Source: Candidatus Kapaibacterium sp. (GTDB lineage Bacteria > Bacteroidota > Ignavibacteria > Kapaibacteriales > UBA2268). Taken from it: a stretch of DNA of 64,000 nucleotides. Where the stretch lies: contig OY762428.1 in NCBI GenBank assembly GCA_963665665.1, forward strand, positions 2,048,001 to 2,112,000. The letters run 5' to 3'. Under the pieces are notes generated by a model. The model was not told the DNA's origin. It worked only from the letters and a program-made list of their open reading frames with translations, and made no database searches. Position numbers and translations under genes: made by a program. Position 1 is the stretch's first letter. Each line of letters starts with the position of its first letter. Positions 23,949 to 37,197 of this stretch are shown here, one piece after another.

Positions 23949-26723
23949 TTAATTCTCAATGATAATAACATAACCCCTGCTGTACTTCGATACCGGATCG
24001 AGCCATTTGCCTTCCTTCATCAGGTCGAATTCCATAAAATATTTGCCGCCAAGTTCAGGCACAACAAAGTTATATTCAACTTCCGAAACTGATAATGGCG
24101 TAAATGCCCTGGGCTGTGATTCATATATAATTTTTCTGGTGGCAAAATCCCTGAGCCTGATATTTAATGAAACATCATTTCCAAGTGATCTCATAAGGTC
24201 AAAAATATCGAAATTGAATTCAACAGTATCCCCGGGTGAGAAATTAAATTCCGGCAGCTTGAATATCGGGTCAAGGACTATGTCATAATCCTGCCAGGGG
24301 AAGAAATCAAGTGATTCTAATGACTTGGGCAGCCTTTTGCCCTGTATCTGTACGGAATCAACCTTTATTCCTATAAGTTTTTTCTTTTTATTTCTTTGCA
24401 GGTCTCCGAAGAATTCGATATTCAGCACGGGGGGAATCTTCTTCATCTTGAAATCTATTTTAAATTCCCATTCCCCCGGCCGCATATCATAGTTAAAGAC
24501 CTCTTCCTTGTTTATCTTTACTATCATATTTTGCTTGATCTTGTTGTTGTTCGTTACTTTCAGCCAGAGCGCTGTTGCCGTGTCGTTCGGGCGTAGCGGC
24601 ATGGTAATATTTGCACTGCCGTTTATCCAGCGATGTTCGTAAAAGCCCTTAGTTAGAGTTCCATAAAACGAAGTATCCAGCAGGTCGCGGTTCAGGTATG
24701 ACGGGGCAAGAGCCACCAGTCCCTGGTCTGCCCTGCTGTTCTTCAGCCACAGGTAATCATCGCTGTCAAATTCCTTTGCGATAAGGAATGCAGCATTGTT
24801 TTTTAAGTTATATTCCGGATTATTTGTGAGCAATACAGGGCTGTCAGAAGTGTCATTTTTAATCGTAATAAATTCAGCTTTTAATTCCGGGCACTGATAT
24901 TGGTAATTAAATACGTTGGGAGAATTTTTGGTAGCAAGGTCTATTGCCAAATTGTTCTCAGCTACCCCGGATACTCGTAGAGCATTTGTAATAATATTTC
25001 TTTCCAGGCGATTCTGATGGTGATATTGAATAACATAAATATATGTGACTGCCGAAAATGCAATGAACACAAGCCCCATGGCCGGAAAAGCAACATAAGG
25101 CAGCTTTTTGCCAAGAAAACCGACAAATAAATAACCCGCCAGCATGAAAGCTGTGAAAATCATTATATTTATTGTTCCGAGCGCAGAACGCAACGGGAAG
25201 AATGACATGAAGTTTCTGAAAGAAGGTTCCGCTTCGATAATATTTCCGTAAGTGGAAAGCGGCAGGATAACAGATATTGCAATAATCACAAATGCTGCCA
25301 GATGTATCTTCCAGTTAAAGAAAGCTTTTCTATCAACAATACCGTAAAGGGCAAAGGCAAATACAGGAGCCAGGAAAACCTCTGCGTAACGGCCATAGAA
25401 GAACCTGTCCGGACGGTAATCCATATCGGTAATACCGAGGTTGGTAATAATAAAAAGCATTCCGAACACATTCAGTATCAGGTACATTAGCGCAACGCTG
25501 CCGGGATCTTTCAGCAGTTCCTGCCATTTCATTTCTGATTTGGTTGCCATATAATAAACCATGTATGCAATGCCAAAGGCAAAAAAACCGAAAGTGGCGA
25601 CATTCAGGTAATAAATTTTACCACTAACGTTTATAACCCATTTCCATAGTGAATCCAGGATAAAATCAATGAAATCCGGGCCGGGAATAACAGCATAAGT
25701 CATTCCGAGAAATATAGCGAGGAATATCATCAGCTTTATCAGGTCTTTCCAGTTGAATTTGCCTTTAAAAGTCAATAATACAACAAATGCTGATTGAATA
25801 AGCAGCAAAGCAAGTCCGATCATTATTGTCGTTGAATTATAACGCAGCAGAAAGGCTGATACAATGCCGGTGATTGATAGATTTATATAATGCAGGTTGT
25901 GTTTTTTTGGAAGGAACATTCCGGAGAGAACAGCCATGATTACTATCAGAAGGTCAATCCTCCCAAAAAGCTGCTCAATTATCTGCTCAATTGAATTTTG
26001 CTCGCCGTGCATCAGGCTGCTGAGCTGCTCACCGTAGGATAAGGAAAAAATCAGAACAAAGAAATTTATTATCAGAACGGTTGAACCGAAACTGGCATCC
26101 AGAGACTTACGGCGCATCAGGAATATCAGGAATACGAAATTAAGGAATATAATAGATATACCCCTGACATGAATTGTGTAAATCAGTACGGAAACAAGTG
26201 CAAATAAAACAGTCGATACCCAGTCCTGCTTTTTATAAAAATATGCAAATGAAAAGATGAGCAATGCAAAAAATGCCGGGGTCACGGCATCAGTCCATGC
26301 CATCTTTGATTGCAGGAAAAATGCCGGGTAAAGCGAGATAACGAAGGACAGAAGCAGAGACCTGTTTGTCTTAAGTTTAAAAATATGATGCAGTAAAAGA
26401 AAAAGCCATATTACGATGGTAGCGGAAAGTATGCCGTTAATTACCAGCGCCGCTTTGTAAATCATAGCGGGATCGCTGAAAAGCATGAATGCGGGAGAGA
26501 TTATCATGGAATATCCAAAACCACTGGGCTGTCCGCCGCCGGGATAAACGGGCATGGAACCGCCCGCAATATAACGCGCTTTGCCAAGGTATCCGAATTC
26601 ATCGCCTGCTACAACAGGGGTTTCAAGGCTGAGTCCCATAATAATATGTGTTGCTGCAAGAATAATATATGCTGTAAAGATTACGATAAATGTTTTTCTG
26701 TTTTCTTTCATGCCTGATTTCAT
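23949..26723 (-). CDS. large polytopic membrane protein, GT-C (ArnT/PMT-like) glycosyltransferase suspected, with C-terminal soluble beta domains
   Basis: Many TM segments; GDEFGY acidic motif in first loop; RYAEVF. The ORF extends to 26783, so the start is uncertain. Confidence 0.6.
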   Translation of the reverse strand: MKSGMKENRKTFIVIFTAYIILAATHIIMGLSLETPVVAGDEFGYLGKARYIAGGSMPVYPGGGQPSGFGYSMIISPAFMLFSDPAMIYKAALVINGILSATIVIWLFLLLHHIFKLKTNRSLLLSFVISLYPAFFLQSKMAWTDAVTPAFFALLIFSFAYFYKKQDWVSTVLFALVSVLIYTIHVRGISIIFLNFVFLIFLMRRKSLDASFGSTVLIINFFVLIFSLSYGEQLSSLMHGEQNSIEQIIEQLFGRIDLLIVIMAVLSGMFLPKKHNLHYINLSITGIVSAFLLRYNSTTIMIGLALLLIQSAFVVLLTFKGKFNWKDLIKLMIFLAIFLGMTYAVIPGPDFIDFILDSLWKWVINVSGKIYYLNVATFGFFAFGIAYMVYYMATKSEMKWQELLKDPGSVALMYLILNVFGMLFIITNLGITDMDYRPDRFFYGRYAEVFLAPVFAFALYGIVDRKAFFNWKIHLAAFVIIAISVILPLSTYGNIIEAEPSFRNFMSFFPLRSALGTINIMIFTAFMLAGYLFVGFLGKKLPYVAFPAMGLVFIAFSAVTYIYVIQYHHQNRLERNIITNALRVSGVAENNLAIDLATKNSPNVFNYQYQCPELKAEFITIKNDTSDSPVLLTNNPEYNLKNNAAFLIAKEFDSDDYLWLKNSRADQGLVALAPSYLNRDLLDTSFYGTLTKGFYEHRWINGSANITMPLRPNDTATALWLKVTNNNKIKQNMIVKINKEEVFNYDMRPGEWEFKIDFKMKKIPPVLNIEFFGDLQRNKKKKLIGIKVDSVQIQGKRLPKSLESLDFFPWQDYDIVLDPIFKLPEFNFSPGDTVEFNFDIFDLMRSLGNDVSLNIRLRDFATRKIIYESQPRAFTPLSVSEVEYNFVVPELGGKYFMEFDLMKEGKWLDPVSKYSRGYVIIIEN

Positions 26724-26949
26724 TCTGAATAGGATTACATAATTCCAAACGCAAAGATAAGAATTTAATATATGATAATACAAATTGAATCTTGTGAATA
26801 TGCAAACAACTATATTCTGATGTTAGTAATTTTATTCTTGTATTTTCATATAAAAGCATTAAATTTGACCTTTAGGATGGAACAATTTGGACTTTGGTTT
26901 AAAATTTTTCATATTTTGTTTCACTAAACTTTGGTTTTCGTTATAGTTA

Positions 26950-27483
26950 ATGGATGAATGCTTACATACGGGGGGGCAGGCTGATACCCGTGAATTGAAC
27001 TGGTATCCGTTTTATACGCGCAGCCGCCATGAGAAAAAAGCCTATCAAAACCTTATTCGTGAAGGTTATAATGCTTATTTGCCTCTAAAGAAATCTGTAA
27101 GGCAGTGGAGCGACCGCAGGAAAATTGTGGAAACGCCGCTGATTTCTTCCTATGTATTTGCCAAAACAACGAGAGACCAACTTTACAACATAGTAAAACT
27201 CGACGGAATAGCACGTTACATCAGCTTTGCCGGCCAGCCTGCCACGATTCGGGACAAAGAAATTGATATTATCCGAAAAGCCTTGACTGAGGATACGGAA
27301 CTGGAAGTTAAGGATGGTATGCTGGGCGAGGGCCGCGAAGTGAAATTAAACGCCGGGCCTTTCATGGGATACTCCGGAAAGGTAATAAAACTAAAAGGGA
27401 AAAACAGGCTTGTGATTGAGATTGAAGCCTTGAATAAAACTTTGTTGATTACAGTTGAAAGAAATCAACTGTCGGGAAGATAA
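26950..27483 (+). CDS. upxY: UpxY-family transcription antiterminator (NusG/RfaH paralog)
   Basis: WYPFYTRSRHEKK, AYLPL....RQWSDRRKIVETPLISSYVF, KOW motif GPFMGYSG; lies upstream of a polysaccharide locus. Confidence 0.93.
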   Translation: MDECLHTGGQADTRELNWYPFYTRSRHEKKAYQNLIREGYNAYLPLKKSVRQWSDRRKIVETPLISSYVFAKTTRDQLYNIVKLDGIARYISFAGQPATIRDKEIDIIRKALTEDTELEVKDGMLGEGREVKLNAGPFMGYSGKVIKLKGKNRLVIEIEALNKTLLITVERNQLSGR

Positions 27484-27580: not shown

Positions 27581-27630
27581 TTGGAAAGAGGGAAAGAAAA
27601 CACTTTGACACTTGCAAAATTGAAATCTAA

Positions 27631-27895
27631 AGTTCCCCTCTTGGGGGGTGGCGAGCGCAGCGAGACGGGGTGGATTCTTAATTGAAAATTTGAAATTGAT
27701 ATTTAATAATGCTGTATAGCTTAAAAATATTCATAGATGTCATCCTGAGCGAAAGCGAAGGATCCATTCTTCAACAATATCAGCAAAGAAAAAATGCATT
27801 CTTCAGTCCCAAGCTCAGGAAGCCTGCCCCAACCAGTCGGGAAATGACAAAAGGGTTGTTGATGGAAAATGAAGAAGAACCGGACATAAATATAT
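27631..27895 (+). repeat. composite spacer S0 (modules A-B-C-E)
   Basis: A: TTCCCCTCTTGGGGGGTGGCGAGCGCAGCGAGACGGGGTGGA. B: AATGCTGTATAGCTTAAAAATATT. C: GTCATCCTGAGCGAAAGCGAAGGATCCATTCTTCAAC...ATTCTTCAGTC...AATGACAA. E: GAAAATGAAGAAGAA. Confidence 0.9.
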
Positions 27896-28192
27896 ATGAG
27901 TAAGTCTGATAAGAATATAAAACTGATAGAATTTATTGACAGGAATAGACGGCTTTTCTGGTATATTCCTGATGATGCCATGCATGACATAAGCGACGAA
28001 CTGATACTGGAAAATACTCTTAATTATGCAGGCCTTGATTCTATTGTGGAATATTTCAATATTATCGGACTAAGTAGGGCAGCCGGTATATTCAAGTCCT
28101 TGCACGGCAGAAAAAAGCACAATATCTCTCCCGAAATTTATAATTTTTTTTCACTGGTATTTAAAAGGTATGTACCCGGATATTCTAAATAA
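27896..28192 (+). CDS. cassette 1 antitoxin-like protein (DUF6922-like)
   Basis: LFWY...IL.NTLNY pattern; overlaps the downstream AbiEii gene. Confidence 0.7.
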   Translation: MSKSDKNIKLIEFIDRNRRLFWYIPDDAMHDISDELILENTLNYAGLDSIVEYFNIIGLSRAAGIFKSLHGRKKHNISPEIYNFFSLVFKRYVPGYSK

Positions 28193-28784
28193 AAAACAAA
28201 TTGAATTACTTGAATTATGTAAAGTTTTCAAAAGGGAATTTTATCTTGCCGGAGGTACTGCTATTGCTCTTCAGATTGGACACAGATCGTCAATTGATTT
28301 CGACTTTTTTAAAAAGTCTGCAATCAATCCAAAAAAAGTTATCGACAAAATTGAAAAAGCAGGTTACGATCACTCAATTGTCCGCGCAACATCTGACCAG
28401 CTTGATGTTTTTGTTAACGATGTAAAACTTACATTCCTGCATTATCCATTTGAAGTTGAAGCAAAACAGAAAATGGATAATTATTTCAGGACGCCGGAAT
28501 TGATTTCCCTGGCAGCCCTGAAGGCTTATGCTCTTGGCAGGCGTTCGAAGTGGAAAGATTATGTCGATCTTTATATTTTGATAAACAGGCATTTTTCAAT
28601 TAATGATATATCCCTTAAAGCCGGAGAAATTTTCGGTCAGCTTTTTTCAGAAAAACTTTTTCGAAGTCAGCTATCCTATTTTGATGATATTGATTATTCC
28701 GAACCAGTGATATGGAGCGGCCATGAATTTTCGGCTGATGAGATAAAAGCTTTTTTAGAAGAAAAATCAACCGAAATATTTTAA
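28170..28784 (+). CDS. cassette 1 AbiEii/AbiGii-family nucleotidyltransferase toxin
   Basis: FYLAGGTAIALQIGHRSSIDFDFF, K..A...R...KDYVDLY. Confidence 0.9.
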   Translation: MYPDILNKKQIELLELCKVFKREFYLAGGTAIALQIGHRSSIDFDFFKKSAINPKKVIDKIEKAGYDHSIVRATSDQLDVFVNDVKLTFLHYPFEVEAKQKMDNYFRTPELISLAALKAYALGRRSKWKDYVDLYILINRHFSINDISLKAGEIFGQLFSEKLFRSQLSYFDDIDYSEPVIWSGHEFSADEIKAFLEEKSTEIF

Positions 28785-28821
28785 TTTCTAATGTATAAAA
28801 TGCCCCATAAGGGATTGACTA

Positions 28822-29045
28822 TTTAATTAGAAATTGATAATTAAAAATGCTTCATAGCTTAAATAAATCGAGAAATGGAAGTATCCTCCCCCTTAATCCC
28901 CCTCCAAAGGGGGACATCCCAGAATTCCCATCGAGAGGTGGATTGCGAAGGATCCATTCTTCAACAGTATCAGCAGGAAAAGATGGATTCTTCAGTCGCA
29001 AGCTCCTTCAGAATGACAAGAGGGTTCTTCAAATGAAAATTAAAA
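28822..29045 (+). repeat. composite spacer S1 (B-D-A'-C)
   Basis: AATGCTTCATAGCTTAAA; CCTTAATCCCCCTCCAAAGGGGG at 28891-28913; GATGGATTCTTCAGTCGCAAGCTCCTTCAGAATGACAAGAGG. Confidence 0.93.
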
Positions 29046-29078
29046 ATAATAACAACCGAAAATGAATAACCAAGACTG

Positions 29079-29402
29079 ATGGGCAGAAAAAATAAAAAGA
29101 AAAAATATTACGATGAGCCTCTGAGCAAGGAAATGATCAGTAATATTATACATGAGGCTGTAGAAAAGCAGATAAAGGAGAAGAATCCTCCGGAGGTTGC
29201 GAGAACTTATTACAGGCTGATAGTTATGGGATTGAGTTCCAAAGATGCAAAATCACAAATAATACGGGCTTTTTCAATTGAACTCAGGCAAAGTAAAAAA
29301 TCGGACTATGCCTGGGAAAAAGAATCATATATAGAAATACTTGAAATGCTCCCCATGGAAGATGAGGAATTATATGCTCTTTACCATAGTTTCGAGGACT
29401 AA
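29079..29402 (+). CDS. cassette 2 hypothetical protein
   Basis: 107-aa ORF; 'IHEAVEKQI....PPEV..TY.RL...G.S..DA' resembles small DUF1841-like helical proteins (weak). Confidence 0.6.
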   Translation: MGRKNKKKKYYDEPLSKEMISNIIHEAVEKQIKEKNPPEVARTYYRLIVMGLSSKDAKSQIIRAFSIELRQSKKSDYAWEKESYIEILEMLPMEDEELYALYHSFED

Positions 29403-29455
29403 AGAAATAATCACGATAAGAGTGCAAAGTAAATTAAGCAACTAAGCTATCAATA

Positions 29456-29764
29456 ATGGAAAACGTTGAACAAATAAAGAATATACTTGAAAAAATCTTC
29501 TGGGATATGAACCCCGGGGAGAAAAACAGAAATATCAATATTATTTTGTCGGACAAAAAATCAGTCCTGTCCGATAAACGAATACTGATAAAATTGCTTA
29601 CGGGGCTTGCATGGTACGACCTGCAAAAACTTTTCACGCAGGAAGAATTAAAATCTGCCTTAAATTATGATGTTATTGACAAATTATTCCCGGTTTCCTT
29701 AAGAAATTATTATAATGATGCCGCAAAATTACTACGAAAATATTCTTTACCCTCTGCAGGATAA
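29456..29764 (+). CDS. cassette 2 antitoxin-like protein
   Basis: IFWD motif like the cassette 1 partner; overlaps the AbiEii gene. Confidence 0.65.
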   Translation: MENVEQIKNILEKIFWDMNPGEKNRNINIILSDKKSVLSDKRILIKLLTGLAWYDLQKLFTQEELKSALNYDVIDKLFPVSLRNYYNDAAKLLRKYSLPSAG

Positions 29765-30404
29765 AATTTTAAAATTGGTAAGCTTAGCCAAAACTGATTT
29801 CTACCTGACAGGCGGAACTGCTCTTAGCAGGGTTTACCTAAATCACAGGTATTCAGACGATTTGGATTTTTTTGTTAATAACAGCCCTGATTTTAAGCCG
29901 GCCGTGGAAGCAGTTCTAAATATTTTTGATGATGGGGAAGTTATCTATAAGCCAATTTCAACAAATAACGGATTTGTCAGGTTGGTAATTAATGATAAAA
30001 ACTGCAATCTGAAAATTGACTTTGTTAACGATATTTCTTTCAGAGCGGGTGAAGTTGGTGAATGGAAGAAATACCCGAGAGTAGATAATATGCTGAATAT
30101 ATTATCTAATAAGATTACTGCACTGACGCGCTACGAAACTAAGGATATCGTGGATATTGTCCATATTGCTGTCAAAACAGAATTTAGCTGGGAAGAAATC
30201 TTCAACGATGCCCTCCAAAAAGATGTTTGGGCAAACCCGGTGGAAGCTGCAAAGATTCTTGATGCTTTCCCAACAGGAAAACTTAAAGAAATAAAATGGA
30301 TAGCTGATAGTCCGGATGAAACGATCTTTTCGGATTATATTTCCCAAATTATTCAGGATATTCTTTCAGGCAAAGACAATAGCCTTTTTGGAATTTGCAA
30401 ATAA
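29715..30404 (+). CDS. cassette 2 AbiEii-family nucleotidyltransferase toxin
   Basis: FYLTGGTALSRVYLNHRYSDDLDFF, KIDFV, NKITAL.R...KDIVDI. Confidence 0.9.
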   Translation: MMPQNYYENILYPLQDKILKLVSLAKTDFYLTGGTALSRVYLNHRYSDDLDFFVNNSPDFKPAVEAVLNIFDDGEVIYKPISTNNGFVRLVINDKNCNLKIDFVNDISFRAGEVGEWKKYPRVDNMLNILSNKITALTRYETKDIVDIVHIAVKTEFSWEEIFNDALQKDVWANPVEAAKILDAFPTGKLKEIKWIADSPDETIFSDYISQIIQDILSGKDNSLFGICK

Positions 30405-30601
30405 AAAATTCCCATCGAGGGGTGTCCGAAGGGCGGGGTGGATTCTTCAATTAAATAATTAACAATGCTTCATAGCTTAAAAAAATTGATAAATAGTAGT
30501 ATCCTTCCCCTTAATCCCCCTCCAAAGGGGGACATCCCAGAATTCCCATCGAGGGGTGGATTTATTATTGAAAATGAAGAAGAAATAAAACATAAATTCA
30601 A
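30405..30601 (+). repeat. composite spacer S2 (A-B-D-A'-E)
   Basis: AAATTCCCATCGAGGGGTGTCCGAAGGGCGGGGTGGA; AATGCTTCATAGCTTAAAA; CCTTAATCCCCCTCCAAAGGGGG at 30509-30531. Confidence 0.92.
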
Positions 30602-30796
30602 ATGATAGATAAATCAGCAATAAATATTACAAGCAAAAACAACGATACATCTGAAATTGAATATTGGAGCCGTAAAACGCCGATATTGCGGATTCTTGCT
30701 TTAGAAGAATTGAGAAAAGAATATATTAAGTGGAAACATGATTCAGAGCCGGGATTTCAAAGAGTTTATAAAATTATTAAACTCAAAGAAAGTTAA
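30602..30796 (+). CDS. cassette 3 small partner protein (putative antitoxin)
   Basis: 64 aa, 'EYW...TP..RI.ALE.LR'; overlaps the NTase gene. Confidence 0.65.
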   Translation: MIDKSAINITSKNNDTSEIEYWSRKTPILRILALEELRKEYIKWKHDSEPGFQRVYKIIKLKES

Positions 30797-31217
30797 ATAT
30801 ATGATAATTGGCGGCTATGCTGTTGCTTACCATGGATATCCCAGATATACGGGCGATATAGATTTTTGGATTGATAATAGCAGGGAAAATGCCAGAAGAA
30901 TTATTGCGGTTCTTAACGATTTTGGATTCGATTCACTTGAGATAAAACCTGATGATCTTGCTAATCCTGATAATGTAATTCAACTTGGATTCCCTCCGAA
31001 CAGGATAGATTTGATTTGCGGTATTGAGGGGATTGATTATAACAATGCTTATGATAATTCTGAAATAACCGAAATTGATGGCGAAAAGATCAGGTTTATA
31101 AATCTTGACGATTTGATAACCACCAAGAGTATTAGCGCCCGAAAACAGGATCTGGCCGATATTGATAAACTTGAAAAGATTCGCCTGATGAGGAAAAACC
31201 TTAATGGAAAGAGTTAA
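30738..31217 (+). CDS. cassette 3 nucleotidyltransferase (DUF6036-like)
   Basis: YMIIGGYAVAYHGYPRYTGDIDF, RIDL, K....R.QDLAD. Confidence 0.85.
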   Translation: MIQSRDFKEFIKLLNSKKVKYMIIGGYAVAYHGYPRYTGDIDFWIDNSRENARRIIAVLNDFGFDSLEIKPDDLANPDNVIQLGFPPNRIDLICGIEGIDYNNAYDNSEITEIDGEKIRFINLDDLITTKSISARKQDLADIDKLEKIRLMRKNLNGKS

Positions 31218-31285
31218 TTAAAATAAACACGCAAAGGCGCTGAGAACTCAAAGAAAAAAATTCACCTTGTATGTTTGTAAAGACA

Positions 31286-31467
31286 GATAATTAAAAATGC
31301 TTCATAACTTAAAAATATTCAAAAATGGAAGTATCCTCCCCCTTAATCCCCCTCCAAAGGGGGACAATCCAGAATTCCTATCAAGGGGTGAATGCGAAGG
31401 ATACATTCTTCAACACTATCAGCAGGAAAAGATGGATTCTTCAGTCGCAAGCTCCCTCTGAATGACA
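31286..31467 (+). repeat. composite spacer S3 (B-D-A'-C)
   Basis: AATGCTTCATAACTTAAAAATATT; module D at 31341-31363; GATGGATTCTTCAGTCGCAAGCTCC. Confidence 0.92.
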
Positions 31468-31518
31468 TTTACACACTTGTTCCATTAGCTTCATAGTTCT
31501 GCTAAGTACATAATAAAA

Positions 31519-32673
31519 ATGCAAGTCACAGAAAAATATATTGACAGTCTCCTTAATCAGGGCGAAAACAGCGGGGTAGAGTTTAAATCCGCTGATGTGC
31601 GGGTCGAATCCCTTGCAAAGGAAATCGTGGCTTTTGCAAATACTTCCGGCGGTACTGTTTTGTTGGGCGTGGATGATGATTCTACTATTTCAGGCCTCTT
31701 GCCAGATAAGAATTATGAAGAATGGGTTATGAATATTGCCCGCAACAATATAATCCCGGCTATTCAGCTTGATTACAGCGAACACGAGAAAAATAGAAAA
31801 ACAATTGCCATTATCAATGTTCCTAAGGGCAAGGACAAACCCTACCAGGCAAATGACAATAAATTTTATCTCAGGGTTGGATCTACAAACAGGGTTGCCA
31901 CTATAAATGAACTACTCAGGTTGTTTCAGGAGAGCGGCGCTTTTCATTATGATATTACCAGCGTGGATGGAAGCAGCCCCAAAGCTCTGAATTTCTTCAA
32001 ACTATCCGGATATTTCGGGGCCTATAAAATTGATTTCGACAATTTACCGGATACAGAAAAAATCACACTTTTGCAAAATGCAGATATTCTAAATGAAGAA
32101 AGCAGCTGCACGGTGGCAGGAATGCTAATATTTGGTATCAATCCGCAGCAATACATTCCTTTTGCAAGAATTTCCTTTGCTCATTACAAAAGTCCGGAAA
32201 TCAGCTCTGACCTTCTCAATAAGAAAAATATCGGGGGCGGCCTGTCGGAGCAAATTGATAATACAGTTGCATTGATTGCCAATTCTATACCCGAGCCGTC
32301 CGAAATAGTCGGCACAAAACGAAAAAGCAGCGTTGCAAAATATCCTGTGAAAGTATTCAGGGAATTGATAGTAAATGCCTGCTGCCACAGAAACTATTCC
32401 ATACTTGGATCGGCAATCAGAGTGTTTTTGTTTTCGGATAGGTTGGAAGTAATAAGCCCCGGCAAATTACCCAATACGGTAAGCATAGAAAAATTAAAAG
32501 CCGGGGTTTCCTACGCCGCGAACCCGGTAATAGTAAAATTCATGGAAAATCTGAACTATATAGACAAGCTCGGCAGGGGGCTGCCCATGGTTTGGCAGGA
32601 AGCCGTGAAGCTAAATAAAAAAGTAATTTTTGAAGAAATTGGCCAGGAATTTAAAGTAACTCTGCAACTATGA
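31519..32673 (+). CDS. cassette 4 AlbA_2/Schlafen domain + HATPase_c_4 (RecG C-terminal-like) protein
   Basis: GENSGVEFK, AFANTSGG..LLGVDDD, FRELIVNACCHRNY, SPGKLP, NP, KLGRG. Confidence 0.9.
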   Translation: MQVTEKYIDSLLNQGENSGVEFKSADVRVESLAKEIVAFANTSGGTVLLGVDDDSTISGLLPDKNYEEWVMNIARNNIIPAIQLDYSEHEKNRKTIAIINVPKGKDKPYQANDNKFYLRVGSTNRVATINELLRLFQESGAFHYDITSVDGSSPKALNFFKLSGYFGAYKIDFDNLPDTEKITLLQNADILNEESSCTVAGMLIFGINPQQYIPFARISFAHYKSPEISSDLLNKKNIGGGLSEQIDNTVALIANSIPEPSEIVGTKRKSSVAKYPVKVFRELIVNACCHRNYSILGSAIRVFLFSDRLEVISPGKLPNTVSIEKLKAGVSYAANPVIVKFMENLNYIDKLGRGLPMVWQEAVKLNKKVIFEEIGQEFKVTLQL

Positions 32674-32870
32674 TAAAATTCCCCTCTCTAAGGGTGGGCT
32701 TTTTTAATTGAAAATGGAAAATTAATAATTGAAAATGCTTCATAGCTTAAAAAATTGAGAAATAGTAGTATCCTCCCCCTTAATCCCCCTCCAAAGGGGG
32801 TACAATCCAAATTCCCCTCACTAAGGGTGGCAAGCGCAGCGAGACGGGGTGGACTTCTTTAAATTGAATT
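32674..32870 (+). repeat. composite spacer S4 (A-B-D-A)
   Basis: AAATTCCCCTCTCTAAGGGTGG; module B; module D at 32778-32800; AAATTCCCCTCACTAAGGGTGGCAAGCGCAGCGAGACGGGGTGGA. Confidence 0.92.
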
Positions 32871-32889
32871 CGACAAATAGAATTAGATA

Positions 32890-33429
32890 ATGGAAATAGT
32901 CAGATTCGAAAATATTGAAGATAAGATAATAATCCTGAGAGACCGGCAGGTTATCATCGATAGCGATGTAGCTGAACTCTATGGCGTGGAAACAAGGGAT
33001 ATAAATAAAGCAGTTAAGAATAATCCTGAAAAATTTCCAGAAGGATATGTTTTTGAATTGAATGAAAATGAAAAGCGTGAGCTGGTGGAAAATTTCCACC
33101 ACCTTGATAAACTCAAATATTCCAAAGCATTACCCAAGGCCTTTACTGAAAAGGGTATGTATATGCTGGCTACTATCCTGAAAAGCGCCAGGGCAACTGC
33201 CACAACTATAGCAATAATCGAAGCATTTGCAAAAATTCGCGAGCTGGGAAAGAATATCAGGGAAATGGCTGAAATGGAAAGCGAAAACGAAAAACGCTCG
33301 CTGATGAGGCGCAGCGGTGAAATTATATCAGAAATATTTGACGACGACCTGACAATTGGCGAAACGGAAACCAGTATTGAAATTAACTTCGCCGTTCTGA
33401 AACTAAAGCATACAGTTAAAAGAAAATAA
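32890..33429 (+). CDS. cassette 5 ORF6N (KilA-N-related) DNA-binding protein, copy 1
   Basis: LR..QVIIDSDVAELYGVET..IN.AV.NN..KFP..Y.FEL, PKAFTEKG.YMLATILKS. Confidence 0.92.
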   Translation: MEIVRFENIEDKIIILRDRQVIIDSDVAELYGVETRDINKAVKNNPEKFPEGYVFELNENEKRELVENFHHLDKLKYSKALPKAFTEKGMYMLATILKSARATATTIAIIEAFAKIRELGKNIREMAEMESENEKRSLMRRSGEIISEIFDDDLTIGETETSIEINFAVLKLKHTVKRK

Positions 33430-33443
33430 ATATGCTGAGAAAG

Positions 33444-33716
33444 AAAAATTCCCCTCTCTAAGGGTGGCAGCGCAGCTGACGGGGTGGACTCCTAATTGAA
33501 AATTGAAAATTAAACAATGCTACATAACTTAAAAATATTCGGAAATGGAAGTATCCTCCCCCTTAATCCCCCTCCAAAGGGGGACAATCTAAAATTCCCA
33601 TCGAGGGGTGGATCACAAAGGATCCATTCTTCAACATCATCTGCAGAGAAAGCATGGATTCTTCAGTCGCAAGCTCCTTCAGAATGACAAGAGGCTTCTT
33701 TAATTGACAATGGAAA
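33444..33716 (+). repeat. composite spacer S5 (A-B-D-A'-C)
   Basis: Modules A, B, D and C all present; D at 33561-33583; ends TAATTGACAATGGAAA. Confidence 0.93.
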
Positions 33717-33776
33717 AAATATCCTGAATTATAGAGCGTTCCTTAACTAAAACAGTTAATTACACCGGAGAAAATC

Positions 33777-33986
33777 ATGTTGGCAATAAATGGAATATAC
33801 GAAGACGGAAAGATCAATCCTTTGCAGGATATTCCTGTGAATGAGAAGTATATTGTCAGGATTACCTTCCTGAAGCCTTTGGCCAATGCAGATAAAGAAA
33901 ATGCTGAATCCTTCCTCCGGGCTGCCGAAAGCTCTCTTGATTTCTGGGATAATGAAATTGACGATGAAATCTGGAACAATGTATAA
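33777..33986 (+). CDS. cassette 6 antitoxin (AF2212/DUF104-like N-terminus)
   Basis: AINGIYEDGKI.PL N-terminus and FWDNEIDDEIW acidic C-terminus, typical of MazF partners. Confidence 0.75.
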   Translation: MLAINGIYEDGKINPLQDIPVNEKYIVRITFLKPLANADKENAESFLRAAESSLDFWDNEIDDEIWNNV

Positions 33987-34317
33987 ATCCGGCGATATAC
34001 TTCTTATACCTATCCCTTTTACTGATCTGAGCAGCGCAAAAAAAAGGCCCTGCATAGTAATTTCAGGAACTAATTACAACCGGGTTACCGAAGATATAAT
34101 TGTAATGGCAATAACTTCCAAACTCAGCGATAAAAAATATTCGGTCAGGATTACAAATGACGACCTTGCCTATGGTATGCTACCAACAACTTCGCAAATA
34201 AGAGTTGATAAAATTTATACAATATCCCAAAATATTGTGCAAAGAAAATTAGCTTCGGCAAATACTGAGATTAATGATAAAATATTTGAATTATTTGATG
34301 AGATAATTAGTAATTGA
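33979..34317 (+). CDS. cassette 6 PemK/MazF-family toxin
   Basis: GDILLIPIPFTDLSSAKKRPCIVIS, AITS, S.IRVDKI; ATG at 33979 overlaps the antitoxin stop. Confidence 0.92.
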   Translation: MYKSGDILLIPIPFTDLSSAKKRPCIVISGTNYNRVTEDIIVMAITSKLSDKKYSVRITNDDLAYGMLPTTSQIRVDKIYTISQNIVQRKLASANTEINDKIFELFDEIISN

Positions 34318-34319
34318 CA

Positions 34320-34859
34320 ATGGAAATAGTCAGATTCGAAAATATTGAAGATAAGATAATAATCCTGAGAGGCCGGCAGGTTATTATCGACAGCGATGTT
34401 GCCGATCTCTATGGCGTGGAAACCAAAAGGATCAACGAGGCTGTTTCCAATAATCCTGAAAAATTTCCCGAAGGATATGTTTTTGAGTTAGATGAAAAGG
34501 AAAAACGTAAACTGGTCGAAAATTTCGACCACCTCGATAAACTTAAATATTCCAAAGCATTACCCAAGGCCTTTACTGAAAAGGGCATGTATATGCTGGC
34601 TACCATTCTGAAAAGCGCCAGGGCAACTGCTACTACTATAGCAATAATCGAGGCGTTTGCTAAAATTCGCGAGCTGGGAAAGAATATCAGGGAAATGGGC
34701 GAAATGGAAAGCGAAAACGAAAAACGCTCCCTGATGAGGCGCAGTGGTGAAATTATCTCAGAAATATTTGACGACGACCTGACAATTGGCGAAACGGAAA
34801 CCAGTATAGAAATTAACTTCGCCGTACTGAAGCTAAAGCATACAGTTAAAAGAAAATAA
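34320..34859 (+). CDS. ORF6N protein, copy 2
   Basis: Near-identical paralog of 32890..33429; ATG at 34320. Confidence 0.92.
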   Translation: MEIVRFENIEDKIIILRGRQVIIDSDVADLYGVETKRINEAVSNNPEKFPEGYVFELDEKEKRKLVENFDHLDKLKYSKALPKAFTEKGMYMLATILKSARATATTIAIIEAFAKIRELGKNIREMGEMESENEKRSLMRRSGEIISEIFDDDLTIGETETSIEINFAVLKLKHTVKRK

Positions 34860-34873
34860 ATATGCTGAGAAAG

Positions 34874-35163
34874 AAAAATTCCCCTCTCTAAGGGTGGCAG
34901 CGCGAAGGATCCCGATAAATCGGGACGGGCTGGGGTGGACTCCTAATTGAAAATTGAAAACTAAACAATGCTTTATAGTTTAAAAATATTGAGAAATGTC
35001 ATCCTGAGCGTAGCAAAGGATCCATTCTTCAACACTATCAGCAGAAAAAGATGGATTCTTCAGTCGCAAGCTCCAGAAGCCTGCTCACTGCCTGCCCCGA
35101 TAAATCGGGGACCAGTCGGGGAATGACAAGAGGGTTCTTTAATTGAAAATTGAAAATCGATAA
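34874..35163 (+). repeat. composite spacer S6 (A-B-C) with nested micro-palindromes
   Basis: Modules A, B and C, with CCCGATAAATCGGG inserts at 34910-34925 and 35095-35110. Confidence 0.9.
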
Positions 35164-35346
35164 ATGGCAATGGAAAGAATAGTAAATATATCAGATAATC
35201 ATGAACAAGCCAGGGAATATGAAATTCTTCAGCAGTTAAAAATGACGTCGATTGAAAGACAAATGGCCGCCCGGGAATTGAAAAAGAAATTTTACGGCGA
35301 AAAAACGCCTGATGTACGTAAAAGCCGGGCCTGGAAAGTTTCATGA
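35164..35346 (+). CDS. cassette 7 small partner protein
   Basis: 60 aa, 'MT..ER..AA.ELK'; ATGA overlap with the NTase gene. Confidence 0.65.
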   Translation: MAMERIVNISDNHEQAREYEILQQLKMTSIERQMAARELKKKFYGEKTPDVRKSRAWKVS

Positions 35347-35828
35347 TATTTTCTGATGATATATTGGAATTTTTATATCTGCTGAATAAGCATAATGTAA
35401 AATATATGATCGTAGGGGGCGAGGCTGTTATTTATTATGGCTATGCAAGGCTTACCGGCGATATTGATATTTATTATGATCTTAGTAAAGAGAACTGTAC
35501 TAAATTATTTTCATGCCTTAATGAATTCTGGGATAATGATATCCCCGGATTAAATCAGACGGAAGAATTAGAAAGGGATGGCATTATTATTCAATTTGGC
35601 TTGCCACCAAACCGGATTGATTTGATCAACAATATCGACGGAGTTAATTTTAATGAGGCATGGACCAATAAAGAATCCCTGAATATCGAGGATAAATCAC
35701 TATCTTTTGTGATTAATTATATTGGAATAGATGATCTTATTAAAAACAAGAAATATTCCGGAAGAAATAAAGATATGGATGATCTGGATTATTTGACTAG
35801 AAGAACTGGTCGAAAATTTCGACCTTAA
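35343..35828 (+). CDS. cassette 7 nucleotidyltransferase (DUF6036-like), paralog of cassette 3
   Basis: YMIVGGEAVIYYGYARLTGDIDI, PPNRIDL, K...GR.KD..D. Confidence 0.85.
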   Translation: MIFSDDILEFLYLLNKHNVKYMIVGGEAVIYYGYARLTGDIDIYYDLSKENCTKLFSCLNEFWDNDIPGLNQTEELERDGIIIQFGLPPNRIDLINNIDGVNFNEAWTNKESLNIEDKSLSFVINYIGIDDLIKNKKYSGRNKDMDDLDYLTRRTGRKFRP

Positions 35829-35999
35829 TCCCCCTCCAAAGGGGGACATTCTAAAATTCTCATCGAGGGGTGGATCACGAAGTCTCCATTCTTCAACATC
35901 ATCAGCAAAAAAAGATGGATTCTTCAGTCGCGTGCTCCTTCAGAATGACAAGAGGGTTCTTTAATTGACAATGACGAGAAATCGGATATAAATTCAAAT
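35823..35999 (+). repeat. composite spacer S7 (truncated D-A'-C-E)
   Basis: Starts directly at module D (35823-35845) and lacks A and B; module C intact. Confidence 0.9.
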
Positions 36000-36033
36000 A
36001 TTCAAGCAGCTACTTAACTGAAACGTATAAACC

Positions 36034-36333
36034 ATGAATGCCGAAGAACTATATAATAAATCAATCGATTATATAAAAGAAGAACTGAAGAAAATGCTTC
36101 CGCCAGATACATGTGTTTATCTTTATGGTTCGTCGGCAAGGGGCGATCGCGGCCATAGCTCGGATATTGATATCGCGATTGAATCCAAAAATATTAACAG
36201 CAGGCTTATCGCGGAATTATGTGATAAATTTGATGATTCTTTCGTTCCATACAAAGTAGATATTGTTGATCTGGCCAAAGCCGACGACAATTTTAAGAGC
36301 ATAATCTTTCGGGATGCAGTGAAATGGATGTGA
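36034..36333 (+). CDS. cassette 8 minimal nucleotidyltransferase (MNT antitoxin)
   Basis: YLYGSSARGD....SDIDIA, KVDIV. Confidence 0.92.
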   Translation: MNAEELYNKSIDYIKEELKKMLPPDTCVYLYGSSARGDRGHSSDIDIAIESKNINSRLIAELCDKFDDSFVPYKVDIVDLAKADDNFKSIIFRDAVKWM

Positions 36334-36728
36334 AACTAAACCAGTTAACCAAAGCTGTCAGCAGCCTGAACGATCTTGCAAAAAAGATAAACAATCTGAC
36401 AACTGAAGATGAGATAATCCTTGACGGTTTGCAGAACGGCCTGGCGCAGAAATTTGAATATACAATTGAACTGTTCTGGAAAACAGTAAAAAAATACCTG
36501 CTTAAATATGAAGGAATTGACACCAAATCTCCCAAGCAGGCTATAAAAGAATTTTATAAGAGCGGCAATATCAGCGAAGATCAATATTTGCTTCTAATAC
36601 GCGCTATCGACGACCGCAACGTTTTAAGCCATGTTTATAACGAAAATGATTTCAGCAGGATAATTGATTCTATTTCCGATTATACTGCCCTCATCTTTGA
36701 AATTACTGATCTGCTGAGTAAGAAATAA
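36324..36728 (+). CDS. cassette 8 HEPN protein (HI0074 family)
   Basis: QKFEYTIELFWK, SPKQAIKE, Rx4H motif DRNVLSHVY. Confidence 0.92.
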   Translation: MDVKLNQLTKAVSSLNDLAKKINNLTTEDEIILDGLQNGLAQKFEYTIELFWKTVKKYLLKYEGIDTKSPKQAIKEFYKSGNISEDQYLLLIRAIDDRNVLSHVYNENDFSRIIDSISDYTALIFEITDLLSKK

Positions 36729-36737
36729 CCGCAAAGA

Positions 36738-37123
36738 AAAAATTCCCCTTGAGGGGTGGGATCTTTAATTAAAAATGGAAAATTGATAATTAAAAATGCT
36801 TCATAGCTTAAAAAAATTAGCGATAGTAGTCTCCCCCCCCTTAATCCCCCTCCAAAGGGGGAAATTCCAGAATTCACATCAAGTGGTTGACCGCGAAGTA
36901 TTTATTCTTCAACACTATCAGCAGGAAAAGATGGATTCTTCAGTCGCAAGCTCCTTCAGAATGACAAGAGGCTTCTTTAATTAAAAATTGAAATTGATAA
37001 TTAACTATGCTGTATTGCTTAAAAATATTGAGAAATGTCATCCCCCGACAAGCCGAGGGCAGGCTGAGCAAATGCGAAGGATCCATTCTTCAACACTATC
37101 AGCAGGGAAAGATGGATTCTTCA
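36738..37123 (+). repeat. double composite spacer S8 (A-B-D-A'-C-B-C partial)
   Basis: Module D at 36839-36861; two B and two C modules in tandem with no gene between them. Confidence 0.92.
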
Positions 37124-37197
37124 CTAACCACTAATCACTAACCACCAAACTTAATTCATGAACAACTCTCAACTTTCCACTATCAACTATAAACTAT
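37122..37197 (+). repeat. degenerate 7-mer tandem repeats
   Basis: CACTAAC-CACTAAT-CACTAAC and CAACTCT-CAACTTT-CCACTAT-CAACTAT-AAACTAT. Confidence 0.7.

Follow-up and report, generated by a model that had tools for sequence, protein, structure and literature searches.

Introduction

BstA is a KilA-N-like defence protein that is silenced by a cognate DNA element, aba, overlapping its own gene (PMC8585504). In that study, aba is described as a 63-bp element that comprises 29 bp upstream and the first 34 bp of the gene and needs terminal direct CCCGCC repeats; each BstA variant has its own cognate element, and contact between BstA and aba was not directly demonstrated (PMC8585504). A RhuM-type member of the PADLOC candidate defence family PDC-S05 is reported to have lowered the plating of T7 and T5 about 1000-fold (bioRxiv 10.1101/2024.09.26.614923). 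Here we analyse two near-identical genes of the ORF6N family, ORF6N-A and ORF6N-B, which lie in a 64,000-nucleotide stretch of the Candidatus Kapaibacterium sp. genome (contig OY762428.1, positions 2,048,001 to 2,112,000; hereafter the window). Each gene carries a perfect palindrome in the middle of its coding sequence, and the comparisons below suggest that this palindrome probably serves the ORF6N protein encoded by the same gene as its cognate site in duplex DNA.

Sites that act in cis may lie inside the coding sequence of the protein that binds them, as do parS within spo0J/parB and the lambda ori iterons within gene O; to our knowledge, neither is known to diversify with its protein. Co-diversification is a feature of the heteroimmune lambdoid phages, in which helix-turn-helix dimers bind palindromic half-sites and repressors and operators have evolved together into orthogonal specificities.

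Results

Two ORF6N genes carry matching palindromes that differ by one compensated pair

ORF6N-A and ORF6N-B (Table 1) match Pfam PF10543 (ORF6N) equally well, with 100.8 bits against a gathering threshold of 27.8 and coverage of profile positions 2–86 of 86. Both also give full-length matches to the PADLOC model PDLC04849, which places them in PDC-S05. An initial annotation of this DNA had described two near-identical 179-codon ORF6N genes whose differences cluster in the N-terminal part, and this description was borne out. The two proteins are 94% identical, and 48 of 540 nucleotides differ: none in nt 1–51, 31 in nt 52–216 and 17 in nt 217–540, corresponding to 18.8% divergence in nt 52–216 versus 5.2% after it and 0 before. 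Ten of the 11 amino-acid changes fall within residues 18–70. The densest patch, nt 100–129, contains 14 differences, and equal clustering was reached in 0 of 200 permutations; it codes for ETRDINKAVK in ORF6N-A and ETKRINEAVS in ORF6N-B, a predicted helix.

The inverted repeats reported at matching coding positions of the two genes are exact as well. Each gene contains a perfect 9+1+9 palindrome at identical codons, centred 203 nt into the open reading frame (ORF), with arms TGGTGGAAA and TTTCCACCA around a central A in ORF6N-A and TGGTCGAAA and TTTCGACCA in ORF6N-B. The palindromes differ by one compensated pair, in which one substitution is silent (V66, GTG to GTC) and the other alters the protein (H70, CAC, to D70, GAC), as had been noted initially. 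In a neutral simulation, in which 31 random substitutions were placed in nt 52–216 over 200,000 trials, the palindrome was perfect in 2.3% of trials and perfect after change in 0.4%. Taken alone, the A/B observation is suggestive but not decisive.

A search of the window for the palindrome pattern with at most 3 mismatches returned 6 matches versus 0.07 expected, and 0 of 100 shuffles reached 6. This search revealed a third, B-type copy in addition to the two of the initial annotation. The 17-bp core of this orphan site is identical to that of ORF6N-B, and the site lies 1.29 kb downstream of the B site, where it is read in the third frame as TGRKFRP plus stop, the last codons of an unrelated DUF6036 nucleotidyltransferase. 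It directly adjoins a truncated copy of a dispersed repeat. The 5 closest inspected homologues of the nucleotidyltransferase align to about residue 153 only, and the tail with its end palindrome is absent from them. In the 5.46-Mb genome, with any base allowed at the variable pair, these three were the only core matches, and the same search found no hybrid A/B sites. Apart from their occurrence in the three full sites, the half-sites GGTGGAAA and GGTCGAAA were not enriched in the window.

Single-strand folding of the three copies gave energies of -6.5 to -7.3 kcal/mol (z -3.3 to -3.7). A consensus scan described both B-type palindromes (34513–34531 and 35808–35824) as terminator-like on the minus strand, each having a T-rich run after the stem; the A-type palindrome was not flagged. 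A slippery-sequence frameshift at A-AAT-TTC was also considered and dropped, as the heptamer is not conserved in relatives.

The palindrome is maintained across the ORF6N family at the DNA level

ORF6N loci were pooled from same-family genomes, one-genome-per-species contigs and viral contigs; they were recruited by conserved peptide patterns, and the best 80 per collection were retained. A profile built from 27 homologues detected 206 domains, which were reduced to 201 with both anchor residues, 192 after a coverage filter and 152 at below 90% identity. The sample represents at least 15 bacterial phyla and many viral contigs (Bacteroidota, 41; viral contigs, 46; the window's own family, 26; plus 14 other phyla). 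Within the stretch between the conserved residues L57 and P82, the palindrome score was the number of complementary arm pairs out of 10 at the best single-base centre. The 147 domains that scored at least 8/10 formed the basis of the positional and helix analyses, and 5 were dropped.

At least 9 of 10 arm pairs were complementary in 121 of the 152 non-redundant domains, 48 of which were perfect. The same level was reached in 1 of 384 other windows of equal length in the same genes and in 0.8% of 7,600 synonymous resamplings. Arm complementarity was 0.78–0.99 at positions 1–12 from the centre, 0.67 at position 13 and about 0.33 from position 14, indicating an element of about 27 bp. Covariation was counted on a gap-free 31-column alignment with 500 shuffles and slid controls. 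Paired cells amounted to 92.3% versus 62.6% after shuffling, and the covariation score was 0.704 versus 0.190 (0/500 shuffles for each), with paired cells of at most 47.7% in the slid controls. Both sides vary in 12 of the 13 arm pairs.

Moreover, the palindrome is found in two reading frames. Its centre is the first codon base (phase 0) in 77 genes and the second (phase 1) in 69, and the cores TCACAA, TCGAAA, TCGCAA and TCAAAA occur in both. The B core GGTCGAAAATTTCGACC codes for VENFD here and for RSKIST in relatives of 57–75% identity. Thus, the DNA has persisted through a complete change of the peptide that overlaps it. Mismatched arm pairs comprised 36 G·T, 30 A·C and 59 of other types, with no wobble bias, and the symmetry extends right up to a one-base centre, something of which a hairpin loop could make no use. 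The cores shared between two frames, the lack of G·T bias and the 1-nt centre argue for a duplex DNA site rather than an RNA hairpin. Selection on DNA symmetry, as the initial annotation had proposed from the two genes, is thus upheld by the family: the comparison of 121/152 domains with the synonymous resamplings demonstrates, on comparative grounds, that the symmetry of the palindrome is selected at the DNA level.

An extra copy of a gene's own core within 1.5 kb was found at 10 of the 147 loci, leaving about 93% without a second copy; at 7 of these 10 loci, the copy lies 2–144 bp upstream of the domain start.

Residues of a predicted recognition helix covary with bases of the palindrome

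The AlphaFold2 (AF2) models of ORF6N-A have a predicted local distance difference test score (pLDDT) of 79 for the full length and 89 for the N-domain. They show a β-hairpin, a helix (24–31), a turn and a second helix (35–44), the layout of a helix-turn-helix, followed later by long C-terminal helices. The residues coded by the palindrome lie within helices 59–68 and 70–77. On the predicted recognition helix, residues 36, 40 and 44 are spaced i, i+4, i+8.

A check for covariation between the palindrome and the helix across ORF6N genes, as the initial annotation had suggested, gave a strongly positive result. With site positions counted outward from the centre (p3, p4, p5), E at residue 40 accompanied CG at p5p4 in 55 of 56 domains, Q accompanied CA in 52 of 54 and K accompanied GG in 18 of 23. 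At residue 44, N accompanied A at p3 in 73/73 and R accompanied C in 74/74. When the columns coded by the palindrome itself were excluded, columns 40 and 37, both of which differ between A and B, had the highest mutual information with p4/p5 (1.08 and 1.00 bit; 0.79 and 0.71 bit), and all others reached at most 0.31 bit. Columns 40 and 37 also led for p4/p5 within each residue-44 subfamily separately, and in the R44 subfamily column 36 was the best predictor of p7 and p8. Both reading frames obey the rule (E with CG, 32/32 and 23/23; Q with CA, 27/27 and 25/27). Since the two frames encode unrelated peptides, coevolution of the helix with the peptide encoded by the palindrome is excluded.

Independent changes were counted on a FastTree phylogeny built from the domain columns minus the helix and palindrome columns. 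Over supported branches, E/CG gave 6 independent pairs, a mean of 5.9 of which changed in the same direction and 0 in the opposite one (p 0.03), and Q/CA gave 8, a mean of 7.9 of them concordant and 0 discordant (p 0.008). We also compared 110 pairs of domains with an identity of at least 80% when helix and site are disregarded: residue and site both differed in 52 pairs and both agreed in 46, and there was a change in the site alone in 4 pairs and in the residue alone in 8. Viral contigs that share 99% identity beyond helix and site show the same swap of K/GG to E/CG as ORF6N-A and ORF6N-B, and it was also seen on 2 or more other backbones. ORF6N-A (R36 D37 K40 N44; TGGAAA) and ORF6N-B (K36 R37 E40 N44; TCGAAA) obey the family rule. 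Asn or Gln with A, Lys or Arg with G and Glu with C are textbook amino-acid/base preferences, and such pairings together with i, i+4, i+8 spacing are expected of a recognition helix in the major groove.

Co-resident paralogues were also compared. In 8 loci, 11 of 13 pairs differed in site class, which equals the 84% expected from random pairs; these paralogues therefore add no evidence of selected orthogonality.

Further ORF6N and RhuM loci

Several loci outside the window are described here in their own right. In a Spirochaetales metagenome-assembled genome (MAG; locus L095), a 492-aa ORF contains two ORF6N domains, each with its own palindrome and of different classes: GGTCGAAAATTTCGACC, inside a 35-nt perfect palindrome, and GGTCGCATTTTGCGACC. 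An Omnitrophota MAG (locus L117, 864–3221) carries four tandem ORF6N genes of about 180–190 aa; each has a site of the TCGCA. or the TGCCAA class and a helix in agreement with that class. In the genome of the window, a third ORF6N-like locus (L199, G000:C1:3374539–3374872, minus strand) is broken by a TAA stop; within the motif window, the arms of the best palindrome are only 4 bp long, and a RhuM gene adjoins the locus at 3371657–3372415. One contig from another genus (genome G047, contig C191) carries, about 4 kb apart, an ORF6N gene that has a B-type site and a homologue of the DUF6036 nucleotidyltransferase (59% identical; loci L018 and L232), and ORF6N and DUF6036 nucleotidyltransferase genes may occur in similar islands.

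The genome of the window also encodes a 353-aa Virulence_RhuM protein (locus L198, G000:C1:4450232, gene 1282–2343 on the plus strand; PF13310 E 2.8e-107; PDC-S05 PDLC04868 E 1.3e-150). Its gene contains a perfect 27-bp palindrome, CAGTTATTCGAAATTTTCGAATAACTG, centred near 1533, just after a helix-turn-helix-like segment, in the equivalent place. In raw, uncontrolled counts over 36 RhuM genes (29 loci plus 7 from this genome), the best palindrome lay at +14 nt from the Pfam start in 30, at +31 in 2 and elsewhere in 4; the scores, likewise raw, were 10/10 in 6 genes, 9 in 15, 8 in 11 and 7 in 4.

The ORF6N pair lies in a toxin-antitoxin/defence-like island

Both genes belong to a 9.5-kb island (Table 1) that also contains two AbiEii genes, two DUF6036 nucleotidyltransferases, a Schlafen AlbA_2 protein, a MazF pair and an MNT/HEPN-like pair, all on the plus strand. 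It is bordered by a NusG-like gene (26950–27483) and by a polysaccharide-type cluster from 37361; the flanking genes encode NusG-like, RF-1, Mur ligase and glutamine amidotransferase proteins, and a Pfam scan of them found no integrase, recombinase or transposase adjoining the island. The composite repeat between the genes measures 200–350 nt and comprises families D1–D9, and a 62-nt repeat unit gave 132 blastn matches genome-wide. ORF6N-A stands alone between two copies of this dispersed intergenic repeat, and ORF6N-B starts 2 nt past the stop of the MazF-like gene; the duplicated unit consists of the ORF and the repeat downstream. An integron gene-cassette array was rejected, as there is no adjacent integrase and the repeats are dispersed genome-wide. 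Contigs from four sequencing runs contained fragments broken at the repeats, with many repeat-driven joints.

The dispersed repeat gives rise to small ORFs at 31297–31461, 33517–33687, 34968–35126 and 36796–36984, which begin MLHNLKIF... or MLHSLKKL..., contain ...ILPLNPPPKGD... and are probably not genes. A sigma-70 promoter scan returned consensus-level matches only. Outside the island, a 944-aa ORF on the minus strand (23949–26783) matched no Pfam family at E up to 0.001.

Table 1. Positions of the ORF6N genes, their palindromes and associated features in the window
Feature	Position	Strand	Details
ORF6N-A, 179 aa/codons from ATG	32890..33429	+	PF10543 E 5.3e-29; PDC-S05 PDLC04849 E 1.6e-81, residues 3-179
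ORF6N-B, 179 aa/codons from ATG	34320..34859	+	PF10543 E 5.3e-29; PDC-S05 PDLC04849 E 3.6e-81, residues 3-179
A-type palindrome TGGTGGAAAATTTCCACCA = TGGTGGAAA-A-TTTCCACCA	33083..33101	.	Exact; encodes L65-H71; p5p4p3 = GGA; family-conserved position
B-type palindrome TGGTCGAAAATTTCGACCA = TGGTCGAAA-A-TTTCGACCA	34513..34531	.	Exact; p5p4p3 = CGA
Orphan B-type site TGGTCGAAAATTTCGACCt	35807..35825	.	Mismatch-tolerant search; perfect 17-bp core GGTCGAAAATTTCGACC at 35808-35824
Predicted recognition helix of A, codons 35-44, TRDINKAVKN	32992..33021	+	AF2 helices 24-31, 35-44; columns 36, 37, 40, 44 carry signal
Predicted recognition helix of B, codons 35-44, TKRINEAVSN	34422..34451	+	K36, R37, E40 accompany CG family-wide
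Toxin-antitoxin/defence-like island with composite repeat between genes, containing the ORF6N pair	27630..37135	+	Pfam; repeat families D1-D9
DUF6036/DUF2204 nucleotidyltransferase, 3' end = orphan site	35343..35828	+	PF19502 E 8.1e-07; 43% identical to paralogue at 30738-31217
AF2212-like/MazF-like toxin-antitoxin pair, immediately upstream of ORF6N-B	33777..34317	+	PF02452 E 2.4e-15; PF01954 E 9.4e-04, below cut-off

Discussion

The palindrome as a probable binding site of its own gene product

The covariation of helix and palindrome is consistent with a simple mode of recognition. In a presumed dimer, each subunit would read one half-site through its recognition helix (35–44), and the predicted contacts run outward from the centre, from residue 44 to position 3, from residue 40 together with residue 37 to positions 4–5 and from residue 36 to positions 7–8. 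Only about 90 nt separate the helix codons from the site downstream of them in the same small gene, and helix and site would therefore be inherited and exchanged together. ORF6N-A and ORF6N-B would then represent two specificity alleles on one backbone, predicted not to recognise each other's site. Physical binding, the dimer stoichiometry and the effect of binding are what we infer from these patterns. As for that effect, we tentatively favour the reading that a single-gene defence protein recognises DNA as 'self' by means of the site, in the way that aba switches off BstA. Specificity has switched repeatedly on near-identical backbones, which favours self-marking, since immunity-type selection produces such switching and simple feedback would not. 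The full-length matches of both genes to PDC-S05, the lowered phage plating reported for a RhuM-type member and the precedent of BstA point in the same direction.

A wider proposal, which we put forward as speculation, is that the N-terminal module of ORF6N and RhuM (PDC-S05) proteins is a programmable reader of self and non-self DNA. Such a module would use a transplantable residue–base code (44 to 3; 40 with 37 to 4–5; 36 to 7–8), every gene would carry its own 27-bp intragenic immunity or identity tag, and helix and site would be exchanged as cassettes of about 170 bp. ORF6N-A and ORF6N-B would then form a natural orthogonal pair, and orphan tags such as that at 35807–35825 might extend protection or control to neighbouring DNA.

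A number of observations weigh against these proposals or reduce their force. Regarding the sample, loci were selected by peptide pattern with 80 retained per collection, and 31 of the 152 domains score below 9/10. Regarding the residue–base rule, K40 occurs with TC in 4 of 23 domains and is thus an incomplete predictor, and K/GG, with 3 supported-branch pairs, is not significant. The independent-pair test is small, with only 6 and 8 pairs on a FastTree phylogeny of the remaining domain columns. The rule for residue 44 and position 3 may be a clade marker, because it involves only 4 changes on the tree, and the raw associations are inflated by recombinational co-transfer, because helix and site lie so close together.

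Structural comparison lends the predicted DNA-binding fold no close relative. A sequence profile search of the Protein Data Bank found 0 solved relatives at E up to 1, and Foldseek with the full model and the N-domain returned no match at E up to 0.001. The best VIA-align match, at Z 5.9, was a helical flagellar protein, and all matches were below the tool's meaningful level; the others included Dachshund/Ski (Z 5.8, TM 0.45–0.56), the BAF base module (5.7), the N-domain of baculovirus Orf22 (Z 5.5) and the DNA-binding domain of pSK1 Par (Z 4.3). In Pfam, both proteins matched ORF6N plus a weak Rha match, with KilA-N unmatched.

Strict orthogonality of the pair and self-immunity each face an objection of their own. 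Residues 73–179 contain one A/B difference, and because the C-terminal halves are near-identical in this way, A/B heterodimers could blur orthogonality if dimerisation takes place there. The island shows no sign of a replicating element, and self-immunity is drawn from analogy only. Nor does the genome search support a classical operator: no upstream copy of the site was found for ORF6N-A or ORF6N-B, and all three copies in the genome are intragenic. An 'operator' in the sense of transcriptional control is not established for either gene, and no copy of the site overlaps the promoter of either.

Alternative explanations

ORF6N may also bind the site for plain negative autoregulation, with the palindrome acting as an intragenic roadblock operator that has no role in telling self from non-self. 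We regard this as somewhat unlikely in itself, autorepression by an intragenic roadblock being nearly as likely as self-marking. Sites in or close to the gene of a regulator most commonly serve feedback, and the 7 of 147 loci with an extra own-core copy shortly upstream of the domain start have it in an operator-like place. However, autoregulation explains neither why specificity has switched repeatedly on near-identical backbones nor why another gene, 1.3 kb away, contains an orphan site, and most loci have no second copy nearby.

The initial annotation had named a recombination or hairpin site as the alternative. The palindrome would then serve other machinery, as a module-swap breakpoint or as a cruciform or hairpin target of a transposase or nuclease, and the helix would merely hitch-hike. 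The mosaic divergence of ORF6N-A and ORF6N-B, the near-identical backbones that bear different helix and site modules, the position of the orphan copy exactly at the junction of a gene end and a truncated repeat, and the stable single-strand folding of all three copies are in line with such a role. However, linkage leaves unexplained why the residue–base rule holds in both subfamilies and both frames and why it matches known amino-acid/base preferences, and the genes adjoining the island include no recombinase or transposase. We therefore consider this explanation improbable as a replacement for ORF6N binding, with which a recombination role is compatible; both could coexist.

A hairpin at the RNA level, formed by the mRNA or an antisense transcript and acting in stability, processing or termination, would account for the stable stems and for the terminator-like appearance of the B-type copies on the minus strand, and is very improbable: the A-type copy is not terminator-like, pairing reaches the single central base, G·T-type mismatches (36) show no wobble bias over A·C-type ones (30), and covariation with a protein helix would be unexpected. 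Neither an excess of G·U-compatible mismatches on one strand nor an unconstrained loop, as in a structured RNA, is seen in the ORF6N palindromes.

Finally, chance or a by-product of a conserved peptide and its codon usage has a negligible probability: GAAAATTTC (E-N-F) is itself symmetric and the segment is confidently predicted to be helical, but synonymous resampling gives 0.8% versus 80% observed, the DNA core is kept while the peptides are wholly different between frames (RSKIST versus VENFD or VANCD), a silent third-position change is paired with an amino-acid change between ORF6N-A and ORF6N-B, and the neutral simulation rarely left the palindrome perfect.

Significance

If a cognate-site reading is correct, a very widespread family would explain how a single-gene defence candidate separates its own from foreign DNA, through a site in its own codons. 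It would also provide a compact natural protein–DNA recognition code with dozens of ready orthogonal pairs, and a striking case of dual coding, in which the position of a DNA signal is held while the overlapping peptide is rewritten in another frame. The A/B pair is unusually clean for binding and swap work, because only 11 residues and 2 site bases differ.

Comparison with known systems

In the literature searched, which did not include subscription journals, we found no report of a palindrome inside ORF6N or RhuM genes. Judged by analogy, BstA with aba is the closest known system. In both cases, a short DNA element overlaps the gene of a single-gene DNA-binding protein with a defence role, a candidate role for ORF6N, and the element differs between variants together with the protein, for which the evidence in ORF6N is comparative only. 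The architectures are different. The ORF6N element is a palindrome of 19–27 bp in mid-gene, about 200 nt into it, whereas aba lies at the gene start and has direct repeats; an element of about 63 bp spanning promoter and start codon with terminal direct repeats is absent from ORF6N-A and ORF6N-B. In addition, BstA is a longer, two-domain prophage protein of Proteobacteria.

PDC-S05, to which both genes belong, is defined by sequence models only, and its description contains no intragenic site; the member tested in the one experiment that we found (bioRxiv 10.1101/2024.09.26.614923) carries a RhuM domain, unlike the ORF6N type of 180 aa.

The ORF6N arrangement resembles parS and the lambda ori iterons in that site and protein travel together. 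Those sites serve segregation and replication, whereas the ORF6N site is fixed in position family-wide and covaries with a helix residue. The heteroimmune lambdoid repressors have their operators in promoters and not in coding sequence, and ORF6N falls outside the cI/Cro family. The window contributes two natural, neighbouring and near-isogenic genes that are putative specificity alleles, an orphan site in yet another reading frame and, with its relatives, a residue–base rule that applies in both frames.

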